This document shows, piece by piece, positions 29,888 through 30,784 of a DNA stretch of 64,000 nt. Where the stretch lies: the NCBI RefSeq assembly GCF_003334785.1, contig NZ_QOWV01000001.1. One strand, written 5' to 3'. Source of the DNA: Escherichia coli. Its GTDB lineage: Bacteria > Pseudomonadota > Gammaproteobacteria > Enterobacterales > Enterobacteriaceae. The position numbers and the translations under genes are program-made. Under the pieces are notes generated by a model. The model worked only from the letters and a program-made list of their open reading frames with translations, ran no database searches and was not told the origin of the DNA. The stretch's first letter is position 1. Each line of letters begins with the position of its first letter.

Positions 29888-30784
29888 TCACTTAAGAGGA
29901 GCGGCACTATGTTTCACAGGATAACGGGTTTTTGATATCTTAACCGACCTCGGCCTTGATGGTCGGGGGCGTTTTGTTATGAACACCACTTCCAGAGCAC
30001 CCCGAAGATGCTCCAGTCGTTTCGGGATGGTCCCTGGTGACGCCGTGTTTCCCAGCTCTATCATTTCTGATGCGATATTCTTCCACGCAGGCAGTAGCCA
30101 GTGGCGGTTACAACCCTTCTGGTTCAGCGTCAGCAGCAGGTCTTCGCTGTAAAAAAGTTTATCAAACAACGTAATAGAGTTATCCGGGATGGTGGCGAGC
30201 ATGGAGTGGGCCAGCACAGTTTCGCTCTGCCGGTAAGGTGCGGTCACGGCATTCAGCAGAATGTGACTTCCCAGGTTCATTAAGGCCACCAGACGCATAA
30301 CCGGGTAGGCGTTCTGCCGCTTAGTGGATGTGTTGGCAGACCCATAATATTCACGCAGCTCGGGTTTATCAGGTGTCCTGAACTGTGCGCCATCAATGGC
30401 AAAAAGTTGCAGGCCGTGCCAGTCATCCTTCAGGTAACGTTCCGCGCCCCTGTCTGTGCGGTCTGGCGGAAGAGCCATTCCACTGGGGCGGCCCCCACGC
30501 GCTGACGCGCCTGGGTGACAGCGCTGCGGGCCAGCAGGTTCATCCCCGCTTCGCCATCCGCGCTCAGGTTCAGACGGCGAACAACATCGGTAATTGGCTC
30601 ATTGCACCACCATCCAGATAACCATGTCCCCCGGTAAACGACGGCGGCGAACGGTCGCATGAGCAGAAAGCGTCAGGCAGTGTTGTATCCACTCGGTGGG
30701 AAGGTGTTCTGCAAATAGTTGTGCAGAGGGCGGAGGCATAAGCGGATGGTCACTGAAATCGAGCAGATCATTGAGAAGTGGCAT
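29888..30784 (-). pseudogene. insZ: decayed IS-type (IS4-family-like) transposase remnant
   Basis: three consecutive minus-strand ORFs (29888..30478, 30430..30660, 30599..30784) in different frames with transposase-like sequence; no terminal inverted repeats identified. Confidence 0.65.

Follow-up and report, generated by a model that had tools for sequence, protein, structure and literature searches.

What is the broken transposase that lies between tdk and adhE in K-12-like Escherichia coli, where does the element that it belonged to begin and end, and does what is left of it still affect the neighboring genes? The window that we analyzed (the whole stretch of 64,000 nucleotides from contig NZ_QOWV01000001.1) is K-12-like, its 1301-bp tdk-adhE interval being 100% identical to that of MG1655. 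The two genes are convergent and the remnant is located between their 3' ends, directly downstream of the adhE stop codon; a sequence-only reading had placed it immediately before the long regulatory region of adhE, which is in fact on the far side of adhE, above 33583.

Identity and ends of the remnant

The three minus-strand ORF fragments in this interval are pieces of one IS4-family DDE transposase. When joined, they score 131 bits against the NCBIfam model NF033592 'IS4 family transposase' (cut-off 115, E=4.5e-38) and match the Pfam domains Nterm_IS4 (PF13006, E=1e-24) and DDE_Tnp_1 (PF01609, E=6e-8), and IS4 InsG as a tblastn query finds the remnant at E=7e-25; these matches go well past anything that chance would give and agree with the sequence-only reading, in which the ORFs at 29888-30784 had been likened to a single DDE-type, IS4-family-like transposase. 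The same span (897 bp) is annotated in the MG1655 RefSeq record as a pseudogene, 'IS4 family transposase, frameshifted', and ISZ'/insZ is given as a K-12 insertion sequence in Table 3 of the E. coli W genome paper (PMC3032704). We are nearly certain that the remnant is this ISZ'/insZ, a dead 989-bp IS4-family element that has already been catalogued, with an annotation limited to the ORF span; what is added here beyond that annotation comprises the terminal inverted repeats (IRs), the target-site duplication (TSD), the lesion map and the terminator role. We take ychG and b1239/b1240 to be former names of insZ.

The boundaries, which had been left undefined with no clear IRs or TSD recognized, were placed by alignment with strain ETEC1731 (L002), in which the tdk-adhE spacer is 301 bp and the site is empty. 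Comparison with a strain devoid of the element, as had been proposed, yielded both ends together with the ancestral sequence, an unbroken palindrome, ACGGCCCCAGAAGGGGCCGT, that is split by 989 bp (29879-30867) in the window. The features of the ends and the flanking genes are as follows:

28989..29606, plus strand: tdk
29869..29878: left copy of the TSD, 10 bp, CCCAGAAGGG
29879..30867, minus strand (transposase): whole ISZ' remnant, 989 bp, from the empty-site alignment and the repeated ends
29879..29896, plus strand: terminal IR at the transposase 3' end, CAATGCCGTTCACTTAAG
30850..30867, minus strand: terminal IR at the transposase 5' end, CAATGCCGATCAGTTAAG as minus-strand reading
30868..30877: right copy of the TSD, 10 bp, CCCAGAAGGG
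30908..33583, minus strand: adhE

The IRs bounding the 989 bp, CAATGCCGTTCACTTAAG and CTTAACTGATCGGCATTG, are 18 bp long and agree with each other at 16/18 positions. The IR at the transposase 3' end is identical to that end of the relatives L006, L008 and L009 described below, while the one at the 5' end is identical in L008 and L009 and differs from that of IS4, TAATGCCGATCAGTTAAG, in its first base alone. Members of the IS4 subgroup have been described as carrying the end signature -AATR--------WTW and direct repeats of 10-13 bp (PMC2266710); both ISZ' ends harbor AATG at positions 2-5 and TTA at positions 14-16, and the duplication, as confirmed against the empty site, is the 10-bp CCCAGAAGGG. 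The Nterm_IS4 and DDE_Tnp_1 domains and the match to the IS4 family model are likewise those of the IS4 subgroup (PMC2266710). The element had also been judged as probably truncated; its two termini are complete, and all 441 bp that it lacks were lost from the interior.

Lesions, relatives and loss of mobility

With a fuller-length plasmid copy (L006) as the megablast query, we reached an intact relative of 1430 bp (L009:2501-3930) on the E. coli plasmid NZ_CP062837.1, encoding a transposase of 445 aa (WP_029488891.1) with the triad D137-(76)-D214-(103)-E318 and with Y311/R314/E318/K325. ISZ' and the L009 element show 94.4% DNA identity across all 989 retained bases of ISZ' and have identical IRs, the terminator hairpin ahead of the ATG is common to both, and the L009 element has its own TSD of 11 bp; unlike ISZ', which is without 441 bp, the L009 element has a single intact ORF. 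Alignment with this relative delineates the ORF fragments and lesions of the remnant:

30599..30784, minus strand: ORF fragment 1, 61 aa, transposase N-terminus, ATG at 30784
30605..30606, minus strand: 17-bp deletion, first frameshift (alignment with L009, L008 and L006)
30430..30660, minus strand: ORF fragment 2, 76 aa, in a shifted frame
30450..30451, minus strand: 1-bp deletion, second frameshift, original frame regained (alignment with the intact relative)
29888..30478, minus strand: ORF fragment 3, 196 aa, DDE core joined in frame to the C-terminal tail
30064..30077, minus strand: junction of the 423-bp in-frame deletion, with the surviving 14-bp repeat copy TATCGCATCAGAAA

Fragment 1 aligns with about residues 1-60 of the 445-aa protein, the usable part of fragment 2 (NEPITDVVRRL...FRQTAQT) is the remainder of the Nterm_IS4 domain, and fragment 3 keeps D1 (FAIDG) and D2 (LFDKL). 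Fragments 1 and 3 are in one frame and the middle ORF alone is shifted, because 17 bp and 1 bp add up to 18, taking the frame out and back. The sequence-only reading was thus right in recognizing three minus-strand ORFs, at the coordinates it gave, and in attributing the inactivation to frameshifts, both now mapped to deletions; its 'different frames' are two rather than three. The 423-bp deletion is flanked by imperfect 14-bp direct repeats, TATCGCGGCAGAAA and TATCGCGACAGAAA, and takes out about residues 245-385, including Y311, R314, E318 and K325 (i.e. the catalytic E and YREK). The lengths balance, as 989+17+1+423 = 1430 bp, equal to the intact relative.

The junction of the 423-bp deletion was found in 1,878 records at >=99% identity, once per genome, and for this reason the lesions are real, old and common to the carriers. 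That these lesions recur in about 1,880 independent assemblies also speaks against the prospect, raised earlier, that resequencing would reveal an intact single-frame ORF. When set beside the published description of the IS4 subgroup (PMC2266710), the remnant departs from it in three respects: 1) at 989 bp it is now below the size range of 1400-1650 bp, with a reconstructed length of 1430 bp; 2) the triad D(60-110)D(100-150)E with Y(2)R(3)E(6)K is incomplete, E/YREK being gone; 3) in place of a single unshifted ORF there is one split by the 17-bp and 1-bp deletions, which we regard as damage and not design because the intact relative has a single ORF. With the E and YREK lost in the 423-bp deletion, the remnant is best considered a decayed member of the subgroup and not a functional one.

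We give next to no credence to the idea that the split ORFs yield a functional protein by programmed frameshifting, or that they now serve as a domesticated regulator. Sequence conservation of 99-100% among carriers and the common frame of ORFs 1 and 3 might be cited in its favor; however, the flanks are conserved equally, which leaves nothing to indicate that the remnant is under selection, 40% of E. coli are without it, and a strong terminator ends the RNA 2 nt before the ATG. In addition, the catalytic E/YREK motif is deleted, the frame changes are plain deletions of 17 bp and 1 bp relative to one 445-aa ORF, and the IS4 family is itself defined by a single unshifted ORF (PMC2266710).

We also regard it as highly improbable that the remnant is still a MITE-like, non-autonomous mobile element, with its IRs served in trans by a full-length relative. 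The two IRs are undamaged and match those of L009 exactly, and E. coli plasmids do carry full-length relatives, but each listed match among the 1,878 records is in a single place, with the deletion junction once per genome, and the K-12-type records are single-place as well; the deletion-junction census at >=99% identity in these records yielded no deleted 989-bp form at a second locus. The preferred reading of ISZ' as an immobile relic is the one followed below.

Among named elements, the family's type element, IS4 (insG, 1426 bp), agrees with ISZ' in domain architecture, in target type and in the arrangement of a hairpin plus terminator ahead of the ATG, and the ends of the two are related (TAATGCCGATCAGTTAAGGAT... 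versus CAATGCCGATCAGTTAAGGAT...). Unlike ISZ', it has TSDs of 11-14 bp rather than 10, and its amino-acid identity to ISZ' is only 31% in the tblastn alignment; judged by sequence, IS4 and ISZ' are different elements. The closest match with an IS name is ISCro3 (IS4 family), a name given by one source for a Salmonella enterica subsp. indica protein; compared by transposase protein, it is 78% identical in amino acids to the intact relative and is a different element from ISZ'.

Several further ISZ'-type copies were encountered. Two are full-length but frameshifted, one (L006:1917-3322) adjoining etsC on large E. coli plasmids and the other (L008:2501-3929) on the ETEC H10407 chromosome between copM and silE in the sil/cop region, where it is also inserted in a GC hairpin, with the TSD CCCTGACGGGG. 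Another decayed copy (L007:2501-3300) is found near nanC/nanM in O157:H7, aligning in three pieces at 82-94% identity and with only one recognizable IR; in O157:H7 (NADC 5570/86-24) and related strains, which carry this copy, the tdk-adhE site is empty. In a clinical strain (NZ_CM136176.1), IS903B is apparently in or beside ISZ', the match being in two pieces across 2,367 bp.

States of the locus across E. coli

Among 5,426 complete E. coli genomes, the locus was found in the following states:

1,884/5,426: K-12-type remnant
2,200/5,426: empty site with an intact terminator hairpin
1,130/5,426: true IS4 in the same hairpin and the same orientation
about 210 of 5,424: none of these three states

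The empty site in 2,200/5,426 genomes is in accord with the earlier view of an insertion at an otherwise conserved junction, and we propose that the ISZ' relic has been vertically inherited in about a third of E. coli. The IS4-occupied alleles mostly appear as a decayed IS4 of 1145 bp from which 281 bp have been deleted (strains A4 and THO-003), situated in a divergent flank with 94% identity to K-12. At least one strain, CX07, harbors an intact 1426-bp IS4 that has 99.9% identity with a copy on a plasmid, and its flank is K-12-like (98%).

As to whether the K-12 remnant and the IS4 copies at the same site could be one ancient insertion that diverged in situ, they do share the hairpin and the orientation, and the outer 35 bp at the transposase-proximal end are near-identical. 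However, this has a very small probability in our estimation, as evidenced by: 1) in a three-way alignment spanning the element interiors, the mean column identity is 58% as compared with 94-99% in the flanks; 2) the TSD is 10 bp in the K-12 type, 12 bp in A4 and CX07 and 11 bp in L031; 3) the outermost base is different at either end, in a symmetrical way (C...G versus T...A); 4) the intact IS4 of CX07, 99.9% identical to the plasmid copy, is inside a K-12-like flank. Since the TSD lengths differ and the mean column identity of the alignment spanning the interiors is only 58%, the tdk-adhE hairpin was struck independently several times, by two different elements.

The segment that separates the tdk terminator from the target hairpin (29661-29863, about 200 bp) is conserved in essentially all E. 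coli, this left flank being matched in 5,424/5,426 genomes at 94-99% identity; on inspection of annotation, Rfam and ORFs, it contained no annotated feature, Rfam hit or convincing ORF.

Terminator hairpins and the probable 3' end of adhE mRNA

Three hairpins at this locus are as follows:

30790..30815, minus strand: IS-borne terminator hairpin, with a 10-bp GC-rich stem, UUUUCUU after it and the transposase AUG next (pattern scan; folds, z = -6)
30824..30858, minus strand: hairpin within the IS end that overlaps the inner portion of the IR, UUAAGGAU...AUCCUUAA (folds)
about 29620-29655: tdk terminator hairpin, CTGACAGG...CCTGTCAG

The hairpin at 30824..30858 is also found in IS4 and in all relatives examined. 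On the adhE strand, the empty allele folds into a 10-bp stem followed by U7, and this hairpin is predicted to be a textbook terminator for adhE. The insertion in K-12 parts the 5' half of this native stem from its 3' half and U-tract, and the IS-borne hairpin follows some 90 nt later on the adhE strand, immediately ahead of the transposase AUG.

In a published Term-seq data set (Adams et al. 2021, PMC7815308), MG1655 1295324(-) is recorded as a 3' end of class 'orphan', with 53,800, 51,499 and 100,225 reads in three conditions. Its 61-mer maps to 30776-30836 (-) of the window, which places the 3' end at 30786, ...GCCGUUUUCU; the MG1655-to-window offset of 1,264,538 was independently confirmed by the tdk 3' end at window position 29660. 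At 30790-30815, a GC stem-loop is thus accompanied by a U-tract that contains an in vivo 3' end, as befits an intrinsic terminator. This end is 122 nt past the adhE stop codon on the same strand, and a simple promoter scan yielded no minus-strand promoter between that stop codon and 30786. Going by position, adhE is the most likely source of the abundant RNA that has its 3' end at 30786, and the remnant probably terminates adhE mRNA now, with the IS-borne terminator replacing the split native hairpin; the 30786 end could partly be a processing product and not termination. This terminator role would be the one present-day effect of the remnant and is probably incidental.

We considered the target hairpin as a bidirectional terminator shared by tdk and adhE and rejected this, as tdk has a hairpin and 3' end of its own. 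The tdk 3' end in the Term-seq data, MG1655 1294198(+) (PMC7815308), corresponds to window position 29660, 54 nt past the tdk stop codon, a distance that accounts for its being classed as 'orphan'. Given that tdk ends at its own hairpin, the target hairpin was mainly that of adhE.

In an Rfam scan of 29500-31000, the only hit was a sub-threshold match to ctRNA_p42d on the IS-borne terminator hairpin (30781-30817, minus strand; 33 bits vs. a gathering score of 50 bits), which we dismissed as generic likeness to a hairpin plus U-run. The Term-seq data also include a very strong 3' end with 200,000-309,000 reads at MG1655 1298255(-) (PMC7815308); this is window position 33717, in the adhE 5' UTR at a distance of 134 nt from the start of the ORF, and suggests that transcripts of the long adhE leader end prematurely or are processed.

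For the history of the K-12 allele, we infer the following order of events. An IS4-subgroup element of about 1430 bp would have inserted between the convergent tdk and adhE genes, at the apex of the GC-rich hairpin that presumably was the adhE intrinsic terminator, duplicating a 10-bp target. The copy would then have decayed in place, with deletions of 17 bp and 1 bp destroying the reading frame, and recombination or slippage between the imperfect 14-bp direct repeats may have removed 423 bp along with the catalytic glutamate and YREK, the outcome being an immobile, non-coding relic.

Beyond this locus, with sites drawn from exact-protein look-ups, we reconstructed 20 distinct empty sites for IS4, for ISZ'-type elements and for relatives from Rheinheimera, Ferrimonas, Shewanella and Salmonella, with ISPsy33 (L013, no recognizable TSD) and L024 (Ns) dropped from the target-site count. 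A perfect stem of at least 7 bp centered on the TSD was present at 13/20 sites vs. 0.36% of 5,000 control 60-mers from the window, and a further 3/20 sites had 6-bp or bulged stems; nearly all 20 were positioned between an A-run and a T-run, typically in the spacers of convergent genes. From these features, the sites resemble bidirectional intrinsic terminators. A hairpin plus U-tract also precedes the AUG in IS4, in ISPsy33 and in the relatives from Rheinheimera and Ferrimonas, with its position kept and its sequence not; conservation of position without sequence suggests that the elements carry it as protection from host-gene read-through.

Two other E. coli terminator hairpins were occupied by IS4 more than once. 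In a convergent spacer between genes for enolase and a TPM-phosphatase, IS4 was present in both orientations, with TSDs of 14 and 13 bp (L023 and L025), and a hairpin beside a phage-integrase gene carried IS4 with TSDs of 12 and 13 bp at a two-base offset, CCCCTAGTGGGA versus CTCCCCTAGTGGG (L026 and L027).

Taking these observations together, we are inclined on balance, and with some reserve, to the view that the IS4 subgroup, IS4 itself and the ISZ'-type element included, specifically targets the apex of intrinsic-terminator hairpins (A-run, GC stem-loop, T-run) and brings a replacement terminator set right ahead of its own start codon, thereby preserving host termination and shielding the transposase from read-through, with the tdk-adhE hairpin as a recurrent hot spot that took no fewer than three independent hits from two different elements (TSDs of 10, 11 and 12 bp) and the K-12 relic acting as the adhE terminator. 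A target consensus for IS4, AAA-N20-TTT, was reportedly proposed in 1984, the names linked to it being Mayaux for that year and Mahillon and Chandler for 1998; our text searches of the literature returned no support for this consensus. A literature search on terminator targeting by IS4 returned no relevant paper, and neither the terminator swap nor the adhE case was found in the papers searched. We view the pattern of terminator targeting and replacement as a modest lead that earlier literature has in part foreseen.

As a pseudogene, ISZ' is of minor importance, being a catalogued relic of the best-annotated bacterial genome, for which the exact ends, the TSD and a complete lesion map, absent from the annotation, are now available. 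For the much studied and engineered adhE gene of K-12, the mRNA 3' end is probably set by foreign DNA; if true, about 40% of E. coli strains would end adhE at a different, native terminator, a strain difference of relevance to the transfer of 3'-UTR or expression data. With empty, decayed and freshly occupied alleles at one site, the locus would provide a clean natural example of the targeting of terminator hairpins by the IS4 subgroup.
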